Positions 10,745 through 63,655 of a stretch of DNA of 64,000 nucleotides are shown here, piece after piece. The notes below the pieces were generated by a model. That model was given only the letters and a program-made list of their open reading frames with translations. It was not told the origin of the DNA and did not search any database. The translations under genes and the position numbers were made by a program. Every line of letters starts with the position of its first letter. Positions within the stretch are counted from its first letter, which is position 1. Source of the stretch: Podarcis gaigeae (lineage: Eukaryota); NCBI GenBank assembly GCA_964106915.2, contig OZ066914.1, one strand, 5' to 3'.

Positions 10745-11800
10745 ATCTCTCTCTCTCTCATTTTTATTAAATTTTCATCTAATGACTTCCCTTCTTCTCT
10801 TTCCATGATTCATTTTGCCTATCTTACATCCCTGCATATTTTACAATAACCATTCCAATCGGTTTTCCACTATTACGTCCATCAATATTATGTTGCCAGT
10901 GTTTTGAGCTGTACACAGTTATTTTCCATATACTCAATAAACATTTTCAAATCTTCTTTTAATGTATGTTCTTCTTGCTCTCTTATTCTATATGCCAAAT
11001 CTGTCTGCAAGCTGTGCATATTCTGTCAACTTAAGTTGCCAATCCCCTTTAGATGGGACCTCGCTCACTTTCCATTTTGGAGCTAACACAACATGGGCTG
11101 CAGTTGTTGCATACATAAATAACCTTTTCTGATACCTGAGGATTTCAGTCTGGGTTATCCCCAGCAGAAAGGACTTTTTTTTTGGGGGGGGGGGGAAAGT
11201 AATTTTAAACATTTTTTTCAGTTCATTATAAATATTTCCCCAAAATTCTTTTACCTTTTTACATGTCCACCACATGTGAAAGAATGTTCCCTTCACCTCT
11301 TTACACTTCCAGTACCAATCTTGTAAATCTTGGCCAGCCTAGGTAAAGGTAAAGGGAGCCCTGACCATTAGGTCCAGTCGTGACCAACTCTGGGGTTGTG
11401 GCGCTCATCTCGTTTTATTGGCCGAGGGAGCCGGTGTACAGCTTCCGGTTCATGTGGCCAGCATGACTAAGCCGCTTCTGATGAACCAGAGCAGCACGGA
11501 AATGCCATTTACCTTCCTGCCGGAGCGGTACCTATTTATCTACATGCACTTTGACGTGCTTTCGAACTGCTAGGTTGGCAGGAGCTGGGACCGAGCAATG
11601 GGAGCTCACCCCGTCGCGGGGATGCAAACCTCCGACCTTCTGATCAGCAAGTCCTAGGCTCTGTCTTTTAACCCACTGTGCCACCTGCGTCCCATCTTGG
11701 CCAGCCTACTTGGAGTTAAATGCCATCTATGAATCATTTTCAAATAGTTCTCTTTCAAAGAATAACATGCTATAAATTTCAAGTCACTTTTCCAAAGTTT
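10745..11800 (-). mobile_element. 5'-truncated L1 LINE (ORF2 C-terminus and 3' end), interrupted by a SINE
   Basis: Minus strand gives KLWKSDLKF...[11 protein letters not shown] and GTFFHMWWTCKKVKEFW (L1 Cys-rich domain); TSD CTTGTGCATC at 10735-10744 and 11801-11810. Confidence 0.88.
11342..11693 (-). mobile_element. Sauria SINE nested in the L1
   Basis: GGGACGC head on the minus strand, AGGTAA tail; perfect 15-bp TSD ATCTTGGCCAGCCTA (11327-11341, 11694-11708). Confidence 0.93.
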
Positions 11801-16131: not shown

Positions 16132-16373
16132 CAGTGGTACTTTGAGTTACAAATGCCTCAGGTTACAAACATTTCAGGTTACAAACTCCGCTAACCTGGA
16201 AGAGTTACCTCGTGTTGAGAACTTTGCCCCGGGATGAGAACGAAAATCGTGTGCCGGTGGCACAGCGGCAGCAAGAGGCCCCATTAGCGAAAGTGGTGCT
16301 TCAGATTAAGAACAGTTTCAGGTTAAGAACGGACCTCTGGAACGAATTAAGTTCGTAACTAGAGGTACCACTG
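16132..16373. mobile_element. Tc1/mariner-type MITE (CAGTGGTACC family)
   Basis: CAGTGGTAC...GAGGTACCACTG|TA; body shared with copies at 32945, 41151, 58875 and 61709. Confidence 0.88.
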
Positions 16374-19640: not shown

Positions 19641-20004
19641 TAAGGTAAAGGTAAAGGTACCCCTGCCCGTACGGGCCAGTCTTGACAGACTCTGGGGTTG
19701 TGCGCCCATCTCACTCAAGAGGCCAGGGGCCAGCGCTGTCCGAAGACACTTCCGGGTCACGTGGCCAGTGTGACATCGCTGCTCTGGCGAGCCAGAGCTG
19801 CACACGGAAACGCCGTTTACCTTCCCGCCAGTAAGCGGTCCCTATTTATCTACTTGCACCCGGGGGTGCTTTCAAACTGCTAGGTTGGCAGGCGCTGGGA
19901 CTGAGCGACGGGAGCGCACCCCGCCGCAGGGATTCAAACCGCCGACCTTTCGATCGGCAAGCCCTAGGCGCTGAGGCTTTAACCCACAGCGCCACCCGCC
20001 TCCC
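19641..20004 (-). mobile_element. Sauria SINE, young subfamily
   Basis: TSD GTCCACAAGAGGG (19628-19640, 20007-20019); same subfamily as the copies at 39018 and 63205. Confidence 0.93.
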
Positions 20005-20344
20005 TAGTCCACAAGAGGGAGCCCCACCCAAATCTACTGGGTCTTCAGGTCTAGCCTTAGAAATTGCATTATTTGGATAAAGCATACACTGATTAACATT
20101 TTGGCAAAATCTCCTAAGCAGTTTACACACACACATACAAAAAAATGCAAACAAAAATCAAGATAACAACAAACATAGTAGGATGTTACAAACAGAAATC
20201 AAAATACAAGAGGTACATTAGAAAAATGTCTTAATTTAAAATAACATTCAGCAGCTGCACAGAATAAAAGTGGGAAGTCCGTATCACCTGTTTTTCATCT
20301 TGTATTTGTTCAGTGTAGGTGTAGGTAAATCTGTGTAGCAGATA

Positions 20345-21170: not shown

Positions 21171-23177
21171 AACCATGGTAAGGAAGCGCCTTGCACCCCT
21201 ATCTTCCTTCCATCTTTCATATCACTTGCGGTAAATACAACATCAAGAGTGAGCCCTGATTGATTCGTTGGACCATTAGAGAATTATGGAATTGGTTTGG
21301 GTGGCCTCTGTTCAAATTAGAACTGGGCTAACAAATCCAGCCAGCTCTTTTTTGACCACTTGCAAGAGGAAAATAAACCCCCCTGATTTCTTTCTCTTTT
21401 TTATTTAAAGCTGTGTTCCACTCAGAACCATGTGGTTGGCAGGAAACAGAGCACCTTGCAATGCTTTCTGGTTGCCTCGGGGGCAATGGGACGTGGCACG
21501 CTTTTGATGGGGAGTACAAAACCCTCAGCCACCACAACACAAAAGTGAAGTATGAGATGTCTCCTTCCCTCAACAAACTGGGAACTTTTTATCTTCCCAC
21601 AACCCTCACAAGAAAGCAGCAGAAAATCTATTCCTGATTTCACAGGGAGTGGGAGAGCAGCCCAGCTTTAATTGAAATTCCTGTTTGCCCATGACGTTCA
21701 CTGGGTGACCTTGGGTCATTCAGTTAATCTAACCTACTTTACAGGGTTCTCAAGATAAACTGGACTTTATCCCTACGGATGGCACACCCTGAGTCTCTTG
21801 GAGGAAGGACGAGATGTGCAGATGTAGTCATTCTTAGAGCCTACAGCCTCACCTTTCATAAGTGCTCAGTCCAACATCGAGTGCCCTTGGGAAGGAAACA
21901 GACTGCCAAAATGTTAAATATCCCAAAGATTTGTAATTAGCCGTTGCAATCCCAACAGCCCAGATGGTTCTGCAATACTGGGAGCATATTTCAGTATTGC
22001 TTGGTGAAATATGGAGCAAGGTTGTATTACAATGTTTGGGTTTGCCGGAATGGAGGAAGGAAGTGAAAATGATAAATCCCAGGAAACCTTGCTTAACGTC
22101 TATTCGGAACAGATGTACACAGAGAACTGCAACGATGTAGCTACTCTGCATTATGCTGGTAGACAGCAATGCATTGTTCACTGTTAAGTATATCAGGAGA
22201 ATAGAAAAGGCAAGCTCAAGTTAAATTGTGAATGTGGAAAAACAACAACACCTTGATCGTGTGTTAAGTTTTCAGTAACTTGAAGCAATGGCTTTAAGGC
22301 AGCATGAGTGGGGATTAGTCCTCCCCCCTCCCTGCAACAATGGGTAGAAATAAATAATAATAAATGACTAAAGAAATGCAGAACACACCCAATAGTTCCA
22401 CAGCTGTATTATGCTTTTTGGGTCGGGAGAGAGAGTAAAATAAAGAAAATATTCAAATGCAAAATGGGAAGTTTCCTTAGTTCTGCTTTTGGAGCTGGCT
22501 AAATTCTGCTCTGTTATAAGACAGCTGCTACCTTGCTCTTTAACACACGCAAGCACATCACAGGAGGAGAGATGGAGAAGAGAGAGGGGGAGAGAACGAA
22601 AACCTTGAAGGGGTATATGAGCGGGGGTGGAGGGGTGGGCAGAGTGAGCAGAGGAAATCGCAGCACCTCAACGTTCGAAACAAGAAGACGAATTTGAGAT
22701 TTGTGCTCTCCAGCTGCTTCTACTAAGTCTCTCTGTGTTGCACAGTCTGCCACACGTTCTTCCAACAAGAGAAGCTCTCGTTGGCAGTCCCAGCTGCAGG
22801 CTCCTCTCAAGTTAAATCCCTCCCAGACTCGCAATTTCAACCACATGAGGCATGCCCTAAGAAACGGGAGAAGGAAGAGGAGGAGGAGGGTAGGGGAGAG
22901 GGACATTGTCCAGAGCTTCACCATTTTCTTTCAATTTTCATTTCTTTCCCTTCTTCCTTCCTGCCCCAACCTCTCTCCCATATCACTGTCCTTGTCTGGC
23001 CACCCCCTTTATTTTCATCAAATTGGCACCCCTGCTGGTTTCCACAAGTGGGGAGAGTGATGTTGTGCTCAGGTTCTGCTTCTGGGTTTCCTGTGGGTAT
23101 CTGGCTGGCTGCTGTGAAAACAGAGTGGTGGTTGGGATGAGTCCTTGGCCTGATCCAGCAGGGCTCTGCTTACATAC

Positions 23178-23850
23178 TTAGGAGTTGGAATCTAACAGTA
23201 CCTGGAGCCTCCCCATGTGCTGGCTCCAGGGGTAACCCGTGAAATGCGGTCCAAGATCGGTCCAGGATCTGAAGGTTCTGCTTGGAGTCAGTCCGACAGG
23301 GCCAAGGCAGGACATGAGGCAGGAAACCAGGCAAGGACAGGTGCAGGATCTCAGGCAGTATCTAACGTACAGCAATGTTGCTCCTGCAACCTGGGGCGGG
23401 GTCCGACAGCCTATTATTTTTGTCGGGGTAGTGGCTGATCCTGATCCCCCAGCGACTCGCCTCCCTGTTTTGCCCAAAGGCGAGCACTCCTCCTGCGAGT
23501 CCTCAGGTCTCTCCTTCTCTCAGACCTTAGTCTCTGCAACTCGGGAGGTGTCGGTGGATTACTAGATCCAGGGGCCACCTCAGCCTCCCCTGACCAAACT
23601 GGTAGTGGAGCAGCTGTAAGTGATGGCCCACTGAAGGCAACAAGGTAATCCCTGCATCTGGAGCCAGGGCAGGCTCAGGCCCCTGACTCGGCCCAGCTGG
23701 TGTTTGTTGCAGGGGAACCTGTGCAGACTGGGACTCTTCAGGATCAGGCCCCAGACTTGGTTCAGATGATGCCTGAGGCAAAGGATCCGGTGCAGACTGA
23801 GTCTCCGCTGGTTCCAAGCCCGAGTCCCAGGCCATCAAACCCCAGCCCTA
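23178..23850 (-). mobile_element. LTR-like element (probable old Gypsy solo LTR) with a frameshifted Pro/Ser/Glu-rich to Arg-rich ORF
   Basis: GC-rich block interrupting a CR1-type tail repeat; eroded TAGG...CCTA ends; minus-strand ORF 23838 to 23414 with one frameshift near 23627. Confidence 0.55.
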
Positions 23851-26026
23851 TCTTAATGGTGTGTTGCTTTTGTCTCTGTGCTGCATAGCAGGGCACTCTG
23901 AATTTTGTTGGAACACCAGAATTGGGCAGCAAGGCTGTGTGAATGTGTGTGCAACTTTTTCTCTACAGGCCATTTTCCTGATCAAATAGTGGCAGGGGGC
24001 ATTTATCTCCTGCATCACACATACTTTTGGCCCTTAAATTCCTCTTGGCTTGAGAAATTTCCCTTTTGAGGAAACACTCCTCCCCCAGTCTCATTACCAC
24101 ATCGTGCTTCTGAAGGTTGAGCAACCCAGATGGCTGACTGATCTTCAAACAATGCCACCAATTGCATTGAGGAATATGTTGCAGGTCTCAACCTCATATT
24201 CCACTGGAGGTCAATCTTGGTGATCCCAAGCAGCTGTCCATATGAAATGCTTTTGCATACAAAATGGAAAATAACCATCTTGTGGGTTTCTGGAAATGTT
24301 CTACAACATAGCAAATGAGTGGACCTGAGGGGTAGCTCTGGCATTTCCCTGCCCTGAGACATATGTGAACCAATCTTCAGATTCAACTATTAACAGTGCT
24401 GTCTTCTCCAAAGAATCAAGTGTGTTGAGGTATCAATCACTGGGTTCTTCGTAAGCCCCTTTCATATCTGGCTTCTGTGTATTATCTCTGCTTTTCCACC
24501 ATTGCAATCTTTCACAAGCTCCTAGCACAGCATGTTTAACAGAGCTTGGTCCAGAAAGGGTGCTGCATTTCGTTTTTCATTACAAAGATGGATTGCAGCA
24601 ATTCTCTGCTGTCCAGCCTCCCTGATGAGGCCTTTCAGCATCCACAGATGCTCCTGCTGCAGGCTACTTAGTCTTATTAGGTCGTCTCAAAAGCAAGCTA
24701 CTTTTGAGAAGTTATCTGGCGTCATGCGAGGCAAGCCTGTCTTTTGAGCAACGGGTTTCATTTAATGCCACGCATTAACTCGGCATGTCCATTCTGGATA
24801 GATTTCCTTTTACCCTTGCTGTTACTGTGGTGAGCAAGCTATCTATTAAAGTGGGTGAGGGTCAAGGTGTGTGGCGGCATTCCATGCCAAGAAAACCCAA
24901 CATTGGACCATTAATGTGAAAACGTAAACAGAAGAAGAGCCTGCTGGATCATGCCAATGGTCCATCTCATTCACCACCCTGTTCTTACAACAGCCAACCA
25001 GTTGCCTTTGTGAAACCGACACGCAGGACCTGAGCAACAAAGCATTTGCCCCTGCTGTGGTTTCCAGTGACTGGTATTCAGGAGACTACTGTCTCTGGCT
25101 GTGGATGTAGAGCATAGCTTTCATGGCTAGTAGATTTGCACCCCCCTGTTGATGTTTTATCATTGCTGGGTCTGCTGCCTTGGGCTCCTTCAGGGGGAAG
25201 GGTAGAATATAAATCAAATTAATAAATGGCATGGGGTGATGGGAATGGTAGCCCCCAACAACCTCTGGTAGGAGCCAGTTTGGGGGAAAGCTGCAGAATG
25301 CTGATGTGGCAAATAAATAAATGACAAGTAAGTGCCAAGTTGCAAAGTCAAATGCGGCCATCTTCTTTCCGTAAGGTCAAATTATTTCTCTCATTTCTGA
25401 GTTTTCATCTGATGTAGGTCAAATTGATGCTCCCTGGGGATGGGGGGGGGGGAGGAGGAAATTGCTTAAAACTTTCTAATTTGCACTGTCAGAAACAATA
25501 CGTGGAGCAAAAGAAAGCCATCCTTCTAAATTTCCACTTCTCCAAATTCTGCGTTGCAGTTCTCCAGCCAAGGAATTGTGCACAAAACTGCACGTCCTAG
25601 GGCAAAGTGGGGGGAAATTGACATATTAGGGAAAATAACATACAAAATTGCATTCTGTTAGGGAAAACTGCATTGCCAAAATATGTACGCAAAGGTGTGT
25701 GTATATGAGGAGATATGTGCATTCAAATGCTGATCAAATGTGGATAAAATTGCACATGAATGGGGAAATGCGGAGAACTGAACTCAGTTTTGGAAAAATG
25801 GGAAACTGGGAAACTGAACTGACCATTTCACTCATCTCTATTGCTTCCTGTGTACTGTAATATCAGATTCCGGTGGATTGGATGTGGTTCAGTGATACTG
25901 AATGTGGCTGGATCTTGATTCCACCTCACTGATAAATAGAAATAAACACATCAGGATGACAGGTGGAAAGTAACTTAATGGTGGCATTTCCCTGCACAAT
26001 CTGCACGTACAACCACAATCATCATC

Positions 26027-30055: not shown

Positions 30056-30816
30056 TGTCAGGGGTTCAGAAGGAGAGACACAGGAGGGGGAGCAAATGGA
30101 GAGTGAGGAGGAGGAGTACGAGGGGGGCGCAGGCAGTGACAGTGACCAGAGTTATTCCACAAGCCTCTCTAGCGAATCGGAGGACTCACAGAAGGGAGCG
30201 CCGGTGGCCAGAGCGAAGGGGGGTCCAGGGGGGAAGCCCCAGGAGGAAGGGGCCAGCGGGGAGTCCTTGAGCAGCAGCTGGAGATCAGGACCAGTGTCTC
30301 CACCAGAGCGCAGTGGGGAGGGGGAGTCCCAGGAGTCGGGACCAGTGTCCTCACCACCAGAGGGAGGAGAGGAGTCAGGTTTGGCAACACCCACATCAGG
30401 AAGCGGGGAAACGGTCAGAAGGAAAGTCACCGGCTGGGCGCGCGCGCCAAGTTCAAATGTACAGGAGCGCGGCACAGCGGGGAGCCCGGGAAGGGAGCCA
30501 GGTCCTAAAGCCCGCCGGAGGGAGGGGCAAGACTCAGGAGGCTCAGCGTCAGAGGAGTCCAGGAAGGAGGGAACCCCAGAGGGCAGAAGGACCCAGCGCA
30601 GGAAAGAGCAGCGCAAGAGGTGGAGCCGGGCTAGAATCTTAAACTGGTGTGGGTGGAGCAGTGAGTCAGAGGGGACTTAGCCGGTCTAGCGTCGAGACGT
30701 GGGTCTGCGCGCCCAGAGCTTGGAAATGGAAACTAAACTTTTAATAAAGACTTTTGTATATAACATCCACTGGGCGTTGGTCCTCTGTGAGCTGGGACCT
30801 AGCGGCAGTCCTGACA
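30056..30816 (+). mobile_element. Solo LTR (probably Gypsy/Ty3), young
   Basis: TGTCAGG...CCTGACA 7-bp inverted ends; perfect 5-bp TSD GTCGC (30051-30055, 30817-30821); AATAAA at 30743-30748; CpGs retained. Confidence 0.9.
30096..30680 (+). CDS. LTR-embedded ORF, 194 aa from ATG: acidic/Ser/Gly-rich disordered region followed by an Arg-rich C-terminus; function unknown
   Basis: Frame open from the start of the LTR to TAG at 30678-30680; in-frame internal duplication SGPVS(S)PPE; ends TPEGRRTQRRKEQRKRWSRARIL. Confidence 0.45.
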   Translation: MESEEEEYEGGAGSDSDQSYSTSLSSESEDSQKGAPVARAKGGPGGKPQEEGASGESLSSSWRSGPVSPPERSGEGESQESGPVSSPPEGGEESGLATPTSGSGETVRRKVTGWARAPSSNVQERGTAGSPGREPGPKARRREGQDSGGSASEESRKEGTPEGRRTQRRKEQRKRWSRARILNWCGWSSESEGT

Positions 30817-35595: not shown

Positions 35596-35981
35596 GGTAA
35601 AAGGTAAAGGTAAAGTACCCCTGGACGGTTAAGTCCAGTCAAAGGTGACTATGGGGTTGTGGAGTTCATTTCACTTTCAGGCTGAGGGAGCTGGTGTTTG
35701 TCCACAGACAGCTTTCCGGGTCATGTGGCCAGCATGACTAAACTGCTTCTGACGCAATGGAACACCATGATGGAAGCCAGAGCACACAGAAACGCTCTTT
35801 ACCTTCCTGCTACAGCGGTACCTATTTATCTACTTGCACTGGTGTGCTTTTGAACTGCTAGGTTGGCAGAAGCTGGGACAGAGCAATGGGAGCTCACCCC
35901 GTCGTGGGAATTCGAACCACCAACCTTCTGATCAGCAAGCCCAAGAGGCTCAGTGGTTTAGACCACAGCGCCACCCATGTC
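35596..35981 (-). mobile_element. Sauria SINE
   Basis: AGGTAA tail; TSD CTG(C/T)ACTGGTAA. Confidence 0.9.
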
Positions 35982-37511: not shown

Positions 37512-37865
37512 GGGATGCGGGTGGCACTGTGGGTTAAACCACAGAGCCTAGGACTTGCTGATCAGAAGGTCGGCGGTTTGAATCTCTGCGACAGGGTGAG
37601 CTCCCGTTGCTCGGTCCCTGCTCCTGCCAACCTAGCAGTTCAAAAGCATGTCAAAGTGCAAGTAGATAAATAGGTACTGCTCCAGCAGGAAGGTAAACGG
37701 TGTTTCCGTGTGCTGCTCTGGTTTGCCAGAAGCGGCTTAGTCATTCTGGCCACATGACCCGGAAGCTGTACACCGGCTCCCTCGGCCAGTAAAGCGAGAT
37801 GAGCGTGCAACTCCAGAGTTGGTCACAACTGGACCTAATGGTCAGGCGTCCCTTTACCTTTACCT
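37512..37865 (+). mobile_element. Sauria SINE
   Basis: GGGATGCGGGTGGCACTGTGGG head; CCTTTACCTTTACC tail. Confidence 0.9.
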
Positions 37866-39017
37866 ATAGCTGGGGGGGGGGGTAGCTGGGGTCTTTGCCC
37901 TGGGTGAAGCCTCCAGAGAGGTCCCATTGAGGCTCCCAGACTCTGTGTATGCAAATGCACCTGGCAGGTGCCAGACTGGGTCTTTGACCTGGGTAAAATA
38001 AAGCCTAGTTTTGCCCCTGCCTTTTGGAATAGGATAGGATGAGGATGGTAGGTTTACACTGGTTGGGCTGGTGGGAACCAGAGACCCTCTTCTTGCAGAA
38101 GTGGAAGCATTTTTGTTTTGTTTTCTGGATCCCACCCAGCAAATTCTTCGCCATTTGTTTCATTCCGAGATTAGACGGAACAGGAAAAACAAACAACCCC
38201 CTCAATATTTGTAGCAATATTACCACTTGTGGGTGTATTCTTATATTATAGCAATCTCCCTATGGTTCAGAGCGAATGGAAGGAATGTTTTAGTGTTGTG
38301 TTTTGCACCTGAACAAATTAGTGAAATAAACCATCTCTGGAGTGTTTTGAAATGGCCTTGAAGATACTTTATTAAAAGCGATAAATCAAGTACTGTGATG
38401 GAAATGATTTAATTGCATCAGACCGAGATGTTGTCTCCCCACCCCCCTTCTCTCTTTTGAAATGTCTCCCCATACATTAATGACTTTGAAACAAAGAACT
38501 GGATTTAATAGTTTGCAGCAATTTAATCTAGCACAAAATATTGTGGGAGAGTTTACTGAAATGAGCTTTAGTTTATCATTATATAAGACTACTTTTTTAT
38601 GGGTTTTGCAGTAAAGAGGGTTTTAACTCATTTGATGCAACAACTCTCTTTCCTTCCTCCCCCGATCCAGTTATGTTTATAAATATTTGTTCGAGCAAGA
38701 AAGCATCTTCGAGCTTATTAAAATGGCAACTTATTCATAGGTCATTATGCCATATACAAAACGTTAGTAAAGATGTAAAACATTCGCCAGAATGGCTGTA
38801 TGCTTTTAATACAACATGAGCCAATGAAACAGCAACATTTAAAAGGCAGGATGAATTCTGCAGATAGTTAAAATAGCCCTGTTTACAACTTTGACAAATC
38901 TGCTAAATAACAGGACCCATTCATTTTACATGACTTGTGAATCTCATTGAAAACAACAGTCTCCAACTATTCACCACCTCAGTGACTGTATCTTTTGCAG
39001 TTACCTATTTAAGATTT

Positions 39018-39382
39018 GGGACGCAGGTGGCGCTGTGGGTTAAAGCCTCAGCGCCTAGGACTTGCCGATCGAAAGGTCGGCGGTTCGAATCCCTGCGGCG
39101 GGGTGCGCTCCCGCTGCTCGGTCCCAGCGCCTGCCAACCTAGCAGTTCGAAAGCACCTCCGGGTGCAAGTAGATAAATAGGGACCGCTTACCAGCGGGAA
39201 GGTAAACGGCGTTTCCGTGTGCGGCTCTGGCTCGCCAGATGCAGCTTTGTCACGCTGGCCATGTGACCCGGAAGTGTCTCCGGACAGCGCTGGCCCCTGG
39301 CCTCTTGAGTGAGATGGGCGCACAACCCCAGAGTCTGTCAAGACTGGCCCGTACGGGCAGGGGTACCTTTACCTTTACCTTT
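39018..39382 (+). mobile_element. Sauria SINE, very young copy
   Basis: TSD TATTTAAGATTT (39006-39017, 39383-39394); CpG-rich; almost identical to 63205-63566. Confidence 0.95.
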
Positions 39383-51700: not shown

Positions 51701-52556
51701 TAACAGCAATTCAGAGAACATCAACAGTACAAATTACATACAATGTTGTTGTTTTTAAAATTAACTTTCCCTGATCAGTTTGTACAACATAGATGTGTTC
51801 CTATGTTTAGTGGAGTCTGCTGGATTGTATCCTGTCTTTCTCATGAGAAACAGAGAGAAGGCTTGTAGTTAGAAAATGATTCGGTGGATATATTTGAAAC
51901 TTGTCAATGTAGGAGAAGAAAGTTTGCAGATGGTCTATGCTGAATTTGGGGTACAAAGGATAATAAATACTTCTTTTGAACAAGTTAAACATTTGATGAG
52001 AGACTATGGCATGTTGGCATGTGCCATGTGTTTTTCTCCCATAGACACTGAAGAGGTGGTTTCCCTACAAAGATTTCACAGTTTATACTGTATCTTTTGG
52101 GAAATGCTGTACTTTCTTAGGTCAAGGGGATTGTTAGCCTATATTTTTGTCTAATGTAACATGTTTGTGGGGTTTTTATTATTATTAAAAATATATTTTG
52201 TGGCTAGTGTTAGCAGAATTTCATAAGCACTCAGTTTGAACCTCTTGAGTGAGAAGGTTCAGTGGCATGAGAGGGAGCTTCAGGCAGAGTTGGTCAGTTG
52301 ATCAGAAAAGGATGGAGAAGGGAGAGGCACCAGGTTCTAGTATTATGAAAGTATTGTGCTTTTATACTGCTTATTACTCTGTGATCCTTAGATGAAGGCA
52401 GATATGTAATTTTTTATAATAAAGAAAGAAATAGGGACTCTGAATCTCTTATGGTTTTGAAATGCAAATACCTGGTTCATGAAAGATGCTATTAACGTGG
52501 TGTTAACCATGCACACTCCCAAGGTCTGGTTTTGGGTCCCACCATTCCACCAGGCT

Positions 52557-52874
52557 GGGACGTGGGTGGCGCTGTGGGTTAAATCACAGAGCCTAGGACT
52601 TGCTGATCAGAAGGTCAGCAGTTCGAATCCCCATGACGGGTTGAGCTCCCGTTGCTCGGTCCCTGCTCCTGCCAACCTAGCAGTTCGAAAGCACGTCAAA
52701 GTGCAAGTAGATAAATAGGTACTGCTCCGGCAGGAAGGTAAACGGCGTTTCTGTGCACTGCTCTGGTTTGCCAGAAGCTGTACGCCGGCTCCCTCAGCCA
52801 ATAAAGCGAGATGAGCGCCGCAACCCCAGAGTTGGCCACAACTGGACCTAATGTTCAGGGGTCCCTTTACCTTT
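52557..52874 (+). mobile_element. Sauria SINE with an internal deletion
   Basis: TSD ATTCC(A/T)CCAGGC; lacks the segment lying between two GAAGC copies in sister elements. Confidence 0.9.
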
Positions 52875-53799
52875 ATTCCTCCAGGCCAGAAATGGGGAAG
52901 TCTAGATTAGTATCCAAAGCCTTAATATTCAAATTCATTACACATGCAGGCTAAGACGTATGTTAGCTTTCTATGACTGATATATGATTGATGGGAGGAT
53001 TATATTTGCATACATCTGTTCATATTAATGAATTCACACCTTTGTTATTGGGTCTCACCATCTTGACGCACTCTTTACTTTTGTTGTTCACTGCCAGTTC
53101 AGCTGAAAATGGAAATCCATCTGAAGCAAATTTCTATTTTTTCTTTCTCTGTCTCTCTCTCCCCATTCAGAATAAAAAAACCCAATATTTTAGTTCTTCA
53201 TACTGGAGTTGCCTGCTGAGTTTAAGAAAGCAGAAATCTTTCTGTGGTCTCGCTCAAGCAAACCATTGTTCCCTAAGAGAACACAGGAAAAATTTGAAAG
53301 TATACTTTTGCATTTACTCACTCTGGAGCTTTGATTAGGGATCACAGTGAAGAGAAAGTGCTGGTGGATACAAAATAATTTGTGGGAGCCTTTCTCATGG
53401 GCATCTATGAAACTTCTGGACACATCCTTGTTAGCAGAGAAGTGAAAGCAACTCATACTGGGACGATGAGAAGATTTTCAACCAAAGTATACAACTAATA
53501 CTTCTTTGTTAGATCCTCTCTCTGATTTGGTATCTAGTCCCAGCAATCCTTTTATATGTCTAGCTGGTGTTCCTATGAGTTACTGTTCTTCTTGATTATT
53601 TATGTTCAATCATGACCTGATCCTATGAATTCTTCCTTGCCCAACACTTCCACCCACCCACCTATCTCCCCTGTTTTTCCAAATTCTTTCTGTTTTCCAA
53701 CCATTTCCGCATATCCCCAATGGACATTTGCAACTTTAACTGTACCCATCTTGCCACCGCCTGACCTTCTCTCTACTCAATTTTTTCAAAGTCCATATG

Positions 53800-62883: not shown

Positions 62884-63655
62884 GCTTAAGAACATATGGA
62901 TGGTCTGCTGGATCAGGCCAGTGGCCCATCTGGTCCAACATCCTGTTTTTACAGTGGTCAACCAGATGTCTATGGAAAACTTGAGTGCAAAAGGACTCTC
63001 CCCTCCTGTGGTTTCCAGTAACTTGGTATTCAGAAACTTACTATCTCCAACAGTAGGGCAGAGGCAGTTTTAGGAGCAGAGCACAAGAGGCAAGGGAGGG
63101 CTGAACTTTGAGAGCCCACTGGGTGGATGTTTCAGAGCATGACCATCGGGGCTGGTAGGGACATATAGCCACATCCTCCATGAATTTGCTTAATCCTCTT
63201 TTAAGGTAAAGGTAAAGGTACCCCTGCCCGTACGGGCCAGTCTTGACAGACTCTGGGGTTGTGCGCCCATCTCACTCAAGAGGCCAGGGGCCAGCGCTGT
63301 CCGGAGACACTTCCGGGTCACGTGGCCAGCGTGACAAAGCTGCATCTGGCGAGCCAGAGCCGCACACGGAAACGCCGTTTACCTTCCCGCTGGTAAGCGG
63401 TCCCTATTTATCTACTTGCACCCGGAGGTGCTTTCGAACTGCTAGGTTGGCAGGCGCTGGGACCGAGCAGCGGGAGCGCACCCCGCCGCAGGGATTCGAA
63501 CCGCCGACCTTTCGATCGGCAAGTCCTAGGCGCTGAGGCTTTAACCCACAGCGCCACCTGCGTCCCTAATCCTCTTTTAAATCCTCGGCTTTTTAATCCT
63601 CTTTTAAAGCCGTGCAAATTGGTCACCATCACTACCTCTCGTGGTAAACATTTTC
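62884..63655 (-). mobile_element. Old CR1-type 3' end hosting a Sauria SINE
   Basis: TAAGAACATA...GCTGGATCAGGCCAGTGGCCCATCT and CCTCCATGAATTTG...AATCCTCTTTTAAAGCC motifs, which recur elsewhere in the window. Confidence 0.6.
63205..63566 (-). mobile_element. Sauria SINE, very young copy
   Basis: TSD TAATCCTCTTTTAA (63191-63204, 63567-63580). Confidence 0.95.

Follow-up and report, generated by a model that had tools for sequence, protein, structure and literature searches.

What is encoded by an open reading frame that lies within a repeat of a lizard genome and carries RRSARL, the core of an HMGN-like arginine motif, close to its end? The question is raised by positions 23178-23850 of a 64,000-nucleotide stretch of contig OZ066914.1 from Podarcis gaigeae, which we refer to as the window. 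A preliminary description of this DNA had read the repeat, tentatively, as an LTR with eroded termini that encodes a free chromatin-tethering peptide interrupted by one frameshift. The feature is real but was wrongly framed: as judged from sequence comparison, it is the tail of an integrase, encoded in the LTR and bearing an HMGN-like motif, in one lineage of lizard chromoviruses.

The repeat is a solo LTR of 624 bp on the minus strand (23216-23839) and belongs to a high-copy family of lizard chromoviruses (Ty3/Gypsy). It is flanked by a 5-bp target-site duplication, a direct repeat with one copy on the 3' side of the LTR (23211-23215) and one on its 5' side (23840-23844); its 3' end is CA, its 5' dinucleotide is non-canonical, and six of the eight terminal bases are inverted. 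This combination is unique in the search box, no other of the 93 flanking direct repeats there having TG or CA at an end together with five or more of eight inverted bases. To this we add a comparison with sequencing runs, four of the 24 listed being aligned to 23180-23880 at 80% likeness (2559 contigs from X1, 4387 from X5, 183 from X15 and 76 raw reads from X23). Matching breaks off at 23216 in 31 contigs of X1 and 25 of X5, and at 23837 in 43 and 36 contigs, respectively, and the loose contig ends at these borders agree with one another at 0.36-0.40, as expected of unrelated flanks. Both runs hold dispersed copies that keep the two LTR ends and differ in their flanks, and the summed depth of X1, which is not a copy number, rises from about 45 outside the LTR to as much as 302,252 inside it. 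The LTR call made earlier is upheld by the target-site duplication, the shared copy ends and the unrelated flanks, and the element is better defined than a description of eroded termini would allow. At 23180-23312 the junction of flank and LTR is bridged by contigs of two organism labels (X1 and X5, with 0 and 3 differences), so the insertion is common to both labels. Species-named matches to the tail encoded by the LTR frame are all from Podarcis.

The translation given in the preliminary description, in two minus-strand frames, was reproduced. The first piece (23630-23838) is open from LTR base 2, forms an acidic linker rich in proline, serine and glutamate, and has at 23835-23833 an ATG that starts 68 codons (MAWDSGLEP...LPSV). 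The second piece (23417-23626), read from 23626 and 70 aa long (PSLTAAP...QPLPRQK), contains RRSARL at 23494-23477 and ends at the stop TAA at 23416-23414, which is base 424 of the 624 of the LTR. The break between them lies at about 23630 (23629-23631), where 23627 had been given, and is a lesion of this copy. The expectation that the frame is continuous elsewhere is confirmed by the RefSeq model LOC114604991 of Podarcis muralis (P0001), which reads both pieces unbroken in a single frame and shares 61 of 66 residues with the first and 47 of 59 with the second; in addition, 13 of the 14 raw reads of X23 that cover 23630 differ from the window in length. Contigs with a length difference at this position make up 4% of the depth in X1, 6% in X5 and 47% in X15, evidence that is weaker than the reads because of the low share and because many contigs end there. 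The other indels listed are of 6 nt within the frame and 1 nt outside it. An internal tandem duplication (23670-23805, minus strand, 75% identity) has a period of 69 bp, or 23 codons, and keeps the frame. Shuffling yields a frame of at least 115 codons from LTR base 2 in 4% of cases; in a post-hoc test with 3000 first-order Markov shuffles of the element, one contained RRSARL and 28 contained RRSxR[LIV].

Judged by anatomy alone, what this frame encodes is very probably the C-terminus of a chromovirus integrase, a tail whose code lies in the U3 of the 3' LTR. A protein search through 1.84 billion representatives yielded two matches, P0001 and P0003, and a profile search for the tail yielded six, among them P0004. 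The latter is a Pol of 1240 residues with protease, reverse transcriptase, RNase H, integrase, SH3 and chromodomain (Pfam order PR-RT-RH-IN-SH3-Chromo), which continues past the chromodomain with G-D-G-V-M-A-W-D, reaches RRSARL and ends about 20 residues later. The window LTR reads x-M-A-W-D from base 2, in the same phase as this junction. Six of the 15 members of the P0004 cluster contain the chromodomain pattern, and five of these reach RRSARL in one frame (P0004, P0015, P0020, P0021 and P0022), the sixth, P0019, stopping early. Over 49 aa, the second piece shares 59-65% of its residues with the tails of the Pol models P0004 and P0021, and the whole tail past the chromodomain measures about 140 residues, about 115 of them in the LTR. 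Because the Pol models run from the chromodomain through the LTR start to RRSARL, we read the frame as an integrase tail and not as a separate peptide; what had been described as a free LTR-encoded peptide appears instead to be the end of a Pol that runs into the 3' LTR.

These Pol models, among them UniRef A0A670IJD3 and A0A670K2R9, are gene predictions of a sister subfamily, compared at the protein level; the protein searches returned none from the subfamily to which the window LTR itself belongs, and the link runs via the sister. In the sister-subfamily models, again judged from protein, the LTR borders both gag and pol. Sequence of the LTR frame precedes Gag in P0003, P0005-P0007 and P0023, which fits a 5' LTR, and the points at which these models leave the frame vary, as they do in joined predictions. 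The Gag proteins of the relatives have Retrotrans_gag/Ty3_capsid domains. A FastTree phylogeny of 100 of 113 matches, a chromoviral-type set with no outgroup, places the integrase with chromoviruses, beside amphibian-named ones. The chromodomain of P0004 keeps Y, W and Y, which are given as the residues of group I chromodomains (PMC3605345).

Conservation along the tail is concentrated at its two ends. Between P0001 and P0003, P0004 and P0021, 10-12 of 16 residues are identical at the start, 19 of 77 (25%) in the linker and 23-24 of 34 (68-71%) in the basic block, and the lengths differ by 22-28 residues with both conserved ends staying in frame. The block defined by this identity (23459-23563, minus strand) consists of SNP, a short predicted helix (about 23545-23513), RRSARL (23477-23494) and GG. 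All six residues of RRSARL and an alanine at +8 are kept between the subfamilies, while the residues between helix and motif vary; the motif is found in P0001, P0002, P0003 and the five Pol models. The same does not hold for TPPE, which had been proposed as a feature shared by the two elements of the window and reads SP[KED]LQ in P0001, P0003 and P0004. In the squamate tails, an acidic linker with a net charge of -13 to -31 is followed by a basic stretch of +5 to +11 in the last 45 residues. In an AlphaFold2 model of P0021 (31 sequences, pTM 0.31), the tail is disordered except for a helix of low confidence at 409-419, immediately ahead of the motif.

The core of HMGN proteins is given as RRSARLSA (PMC12480509), and RRSARLxA of the window, P0001 and P0004 agrees with it at seven of eight positions. 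Dot5 and Dsup are described as binding the acidic patch and as requiring three arginines each, R6, R7 and R10 in Dot5 and R363, R364 and R367 in Dsup (PMC13347269, PMC12480509); all three are present in RRSARLxA. We dropped capture from an HMGN retrocopy as an origin, since only the short core is alike and there is no Pfam match. Pfam gave no family at E<=1 for either piece or for P0001, a PDB sequence search gave nothing at E<=10 for the tail, and ESM Atlas, Pfam and PDB sequence together gave nothing usable for the tail of either of the two elements in the window. Among metagenome contigs, 598 pattern matches to the second piece included no confirmed relative, and neither did 20 matches to P0021 among viral contigs. 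A complex prediction for residues 70-106 of P0003 with animal-type H2A/H2B stand-ins scored 0.02 with controls that did not fold, and counts neither way. As a separate observation, animal-type histone H2A/H2B genes occur in contigs of bacterial and archaeal genome bins (L003, L012-L014, L017, L022 and others), where they are likely contamination.

Two further features lie close to the motif on the minus strand. Just past it, at 23455-23462, there is a splice-donor-like site, and the RefSeq models P0001 and P0002 leave the LTR frame at the matching residue; we infer that this exit is a splice. At 23412-23421 the A/T-richest 10-mer of the LTR contains the stop codon and is a candidate TATA-like box; an AT-rich candidate promoter stretch has been described for Sushi LTRs (PMC3601003). 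If the stretch is a TATA-like box, transcription from the LTR itself begins downstream of the frame, and the promoter of a solo LTR would likely leave the frame untranscribed. The conserved block directly precedes this stretch, and constraint at the DNA level is possible there. Among the 40 of 136 rows shown in the variant test there are 27 differences in the frame, 19 of them segregating among copies, and seven of these 19 (37%) are synonymous against 36% expected for random transitions. Two segregating variants among the listed rows fall in 23477-23551, both synonymous and neither inside RRSARL, although these numbers are tiny. About 360 bp downstream of the LTR and on the same strand we also note a candidate host exon (22666-22856) with a pyrimidine tract and an AG acceptor, for which Pfam returned no match.

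To see how far the motif extends, we surveyed 113 proteins chosen by SH3 and chromodomain only, dropped four in which the chromodomain did not align, and searched up to 200 residues downstream of it in the remaining 109. Only one of the 109 tails, that of the query family, has the strict pattern RRSxR[LIVMF], a count that 132 of 1000 shuffles attain as well. The preliminary description had extended S-x-R/AR-(I/L) to squamates at large, which finds no support: in addition to this count, the pattern is absent from P0106, P0096 and the second LTR of the window, with few squamate families sampled. The seven squamate-named rows in the FastTree phylogeny form one clade (support 0.936); the 13 rows left out for coverage include the squamate-named P0047 and P0124 and the unnamed P0096. 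Within the clade, P0106, from a second Podarcis family, has a tail of 199 residues that is acidic and then basic and lacks RRSARL. P0106 and P0096, the latter not in the phylogeny, have long tails that end in an Arg-rich block, and in both the tyrosine of the WKGY motif is missing. The Anolis models P0133-P0135 have no chromodomain and read R-G-D-S-V-M followed by a long acidic tail with an Arg-rich stretch. In the squamate clade, it seems, the chromodomain decays while LTR-encoded tails persist. The tails of amphibian-named relatives, of 3-243 residues, are mutually dissimilar and in different phases, and some are joined to host genes.

A different arginine motif, RRSSAR, stands right behind the chromodomain in six of the 109 proteins (P0040, P0069, P0077, P0078, P0088 and P0097). 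It does not occur in 95,138 upstream residues, and none of 1000 shuffles reaches six of 109. Its carriers fall in two distant clades, P0088 being named as a fungus; RRSSAR may be a related motif of arginines, or else it may reflect a feature of the DNA next to the polypurine tract. A search for DNA of the integrases ending in RRSSAR returned other lineages, in the form of 80 metagenome loci; 15 of these have an open chromodomain, and none of the 15 has RRS..?R. Two further chromoviral integrases, L128 and L129, end in the AT-hook-like PPPRRKRGRPRK, where the lizard tail starts.

The window contains a second solo LTR, of another family, on the plus strand (30056-30816), with TG..CA, 7-bp inverted ends and a 5-bp duplication. 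Its ends fit the Sushi att motifs TGTYANR/CNTNACA, to which the ends of 23216-23839 have no exact fit. From base 2 its frame stays open over 207 codons (30057-30680) and shares its phase with that of the first element; 0.8% of Markov shuffles are open as far. The frame begins with the codons V-R, as found at the V-D-V-R junction of P0106 and P0096, and is probably another integrase tail. The earlier statement that the two elements have no DNA similarity is correct (best blastn E 0.057). Their shared architecture stands in part: both have an acidic linker, a basic end and a frame open from LTR base 2, but RRSARL is absent from 30056-30816. The Arg-rich ends of 30056-30816 and of the second piece align over 17 aa with an E of 0.61. 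By eye, the Arg-rich end of 30056-30816 resembles those of P0096 and P0106 (RR[RK]E..R...[IL]L.W), a match that BLAST does not return.

On present evidence, the balance tips slightly towards a tail that tethers the integration complex to nucleosomes through the HMGN-like arginine motif, the solo LTR preserving its code; tethering to the acidic patch by the RRSARL block is our best guess from sequence. In a full element, only the copy of the tail in the 3' LTR would be translated, as the end of Pol, and it would stay part of the mature integrase. The chromodomain would read a methylated histone tail, the long acidic linker would give reach, and the arginine block would dock on the H2A-H2B acidic patch, which would result in a two-point grip on target chromatin. 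Reverse transcription would place the code of the tail in both LTRs, and recombination between them would leave it in solo LTRs such as 23216-23839, where the tail would no longer be selected and has taken a frameshift. We favour the two-point grip because RRSARLxA agrees with the HMGN core at seven of eight positions and has the arginines of Dot5 and Dsup, and because Y, W and Y are kept in the chromodomain of P0004. Constraint on the protein is favoured by the in-frame 69-bp duplication, the 6-nt indel and the conserved ends that share one frame.

The same integrase tail could be put to another use, its basic block being a nuclear import signal or a general DNA- or RNA-binding helix that resembles HMGN through convergence of Arg-rich sequence. 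The Ty1 integrase has a C-terminal import signal and is a precedent for such a function; what squamate tails have in common is the acidic linker and the basic last 45 residues and not RRSARL, and the basic motifs at the ends of other chromoviral tails are diverse, the AT-hook-like RGRP among them. We nevertheless consider this use unlikely, since RRSARL and the alanine at +8 are kept between subfamilies while the spacer between helix and motif varies, and a plain basic patch would presumably not need a fixed serine, alanine and leucine. More sceptically, the tail may have no function, Pol reading neutrally through GC-rich U3 to the first stop at the A/T-rich box, with the conserved block being promoter DNA. 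This would account for the stop within the A/T-richest stretch, for the lack of an overall synonymous excess among the listed variants and for the unrelated tails, differing in phase and length, of the amphibian-named relatives, and shuffling gives a frame this long in 4% of cases. It is hard to reconcile with length differences between subfamilies that leave both conserved ends in one frame, with a duplication and an indel that preserve the frame, and with the 207 open codons that the second LTR has in this phase; the two synonymous variants in 23477-23551, with none in RRSARL, point the same way in tiny numbers. We hold a neutral run-on to be improbable.

Lower still do we rate a separate chromatin-binding peptide that would start from the ATG at LTR base 5 and be made from spliced element RNA or from host read-through transcripts, a reading that comes near to the original one. 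The ATG is present in all related models, P0001 and P0002 begin there and leave the frame past the motif at the donor-like site, and several UniRef models fuse the frame to Gag or to a host domain; however, the ATG lies inside the terminal sequence recognised by integrase, which would explain its conservation, and joined models leave the frame at differing points, like prediction artefacts. A search of sequencing runs listed no match recorded as RNA. RNA reads of related copies do exist, but all 76 in X23 derive from other copies, none being 99% alike to the window, and the minus strand takes most of the first mates (in the deepest bin, 20.9 against 3.08), a bias that would mean RNA antisense to the frame if the library is stranded by the commonest chemistry. 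The position of the frame upstream of the TATA-like stretch also argues against a peptide of its own.

An integrase tail with a putative acidic-patch anchor can be compared with several known systems. Chromoviruses of the Sushi-like vertebrate branch of Ty3/Gypsy have the same PR-RT-RH-IN-SH3-Chromo Pol, Gag domains and 5-bp target-site duplication, but the lizard integrase runs about 140 residues past the chromodomain to a conserved arginine block. Targeting by chromodomains is noted in PMC5053271. In plant CRM elements of group A, Pol is described as continuing into the 3' LTR and as bearing a putative targeting part there (PMC3059260, PMC3605345), and the CR domain as a helix that carries TRARAR/K and follows a tether of low conservation (PMC11302176). 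The Pol frame enters the 3' LTR in the lizard models too, whereas CR replaces the chromodomain and the lizard tail is added behind an intact one; motif (RRSARL), host and clade differ, and the lizard tail has no match to a CR-family Pfam entry. With HMGN, tardigrade Dsup and yeast Dot5 the tail has in common RRSARLxA (7/8), the three essential arginines and a disordered setting, but the likeness is confined to the short core, the second serine is replaced, there is no HMGN Pfam match, the carrier is an integrase and binding by the lizard protein is putative. Foamy virus Gag is described as using an arginine anchor on the H2A-H2B acidic patch, and the same has been proposed of MLV p12 (PMC11054761). 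These are also retroelement proteins with a conserved arginine, but they are Gag-derived, whereas the lizard anchor, if it does hold the patch, would be a part of integrase, LTR-encoded and accompanied by a chromodomain. An engineered fusion of a LINE protein to HMGN1 has been described (PMC13708176).

Our literature search, which covered few subscription journals, returned nothing on the integrase tail of a squamate chromovirus and no report of an HMGN-like motif in an integrase; read-through of Pol into the lizard LTR may already be recorded in Repbase/Dfam. Tentatively, and with more doubt than confidence, we suggest that this squamate chromovirus, combining an integrase chromodomain with an HMGN-type acidic-patch anchor encoded in the 3' LTR, has the first integrase-borne arginine anchor, and that its solo LTRs drop cassettes of ATG, motif and splice donor for use by host transcripts, as in LOC114604991. 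How vertebrate chromoviruses choose and hold their target chromatin has been little studied, and a natural peptide of 35 residues allows a direct test. If it binds the acidic patch, the HMGN motif would be in independent use by integrases as well as by Gag proteins, Dsup and Dot5, and there would be an animal counterpart to the plant CR motif, its targeting part likewise encoded in the LTR. Reading the frame as a tail also explains the long open frames of lizard solo LTRs and their presence in gene models, which matters for annotation.

Elsewhere in the window, Pfam named none of eight other frames. A dispersed repeat of 360 bp, which we take to resemble Sauria SINE, is present in many copies that are 72-99% alike (11340-11693, 19641-20010, 35600-35980, 37512-37865, 39013-39381, 52550-52875 and 63203-63571), and more repeat families are found at 16132, 32939, 41145, 58873 and 61703, as well as at 23066-23171, adjoining the LTR.
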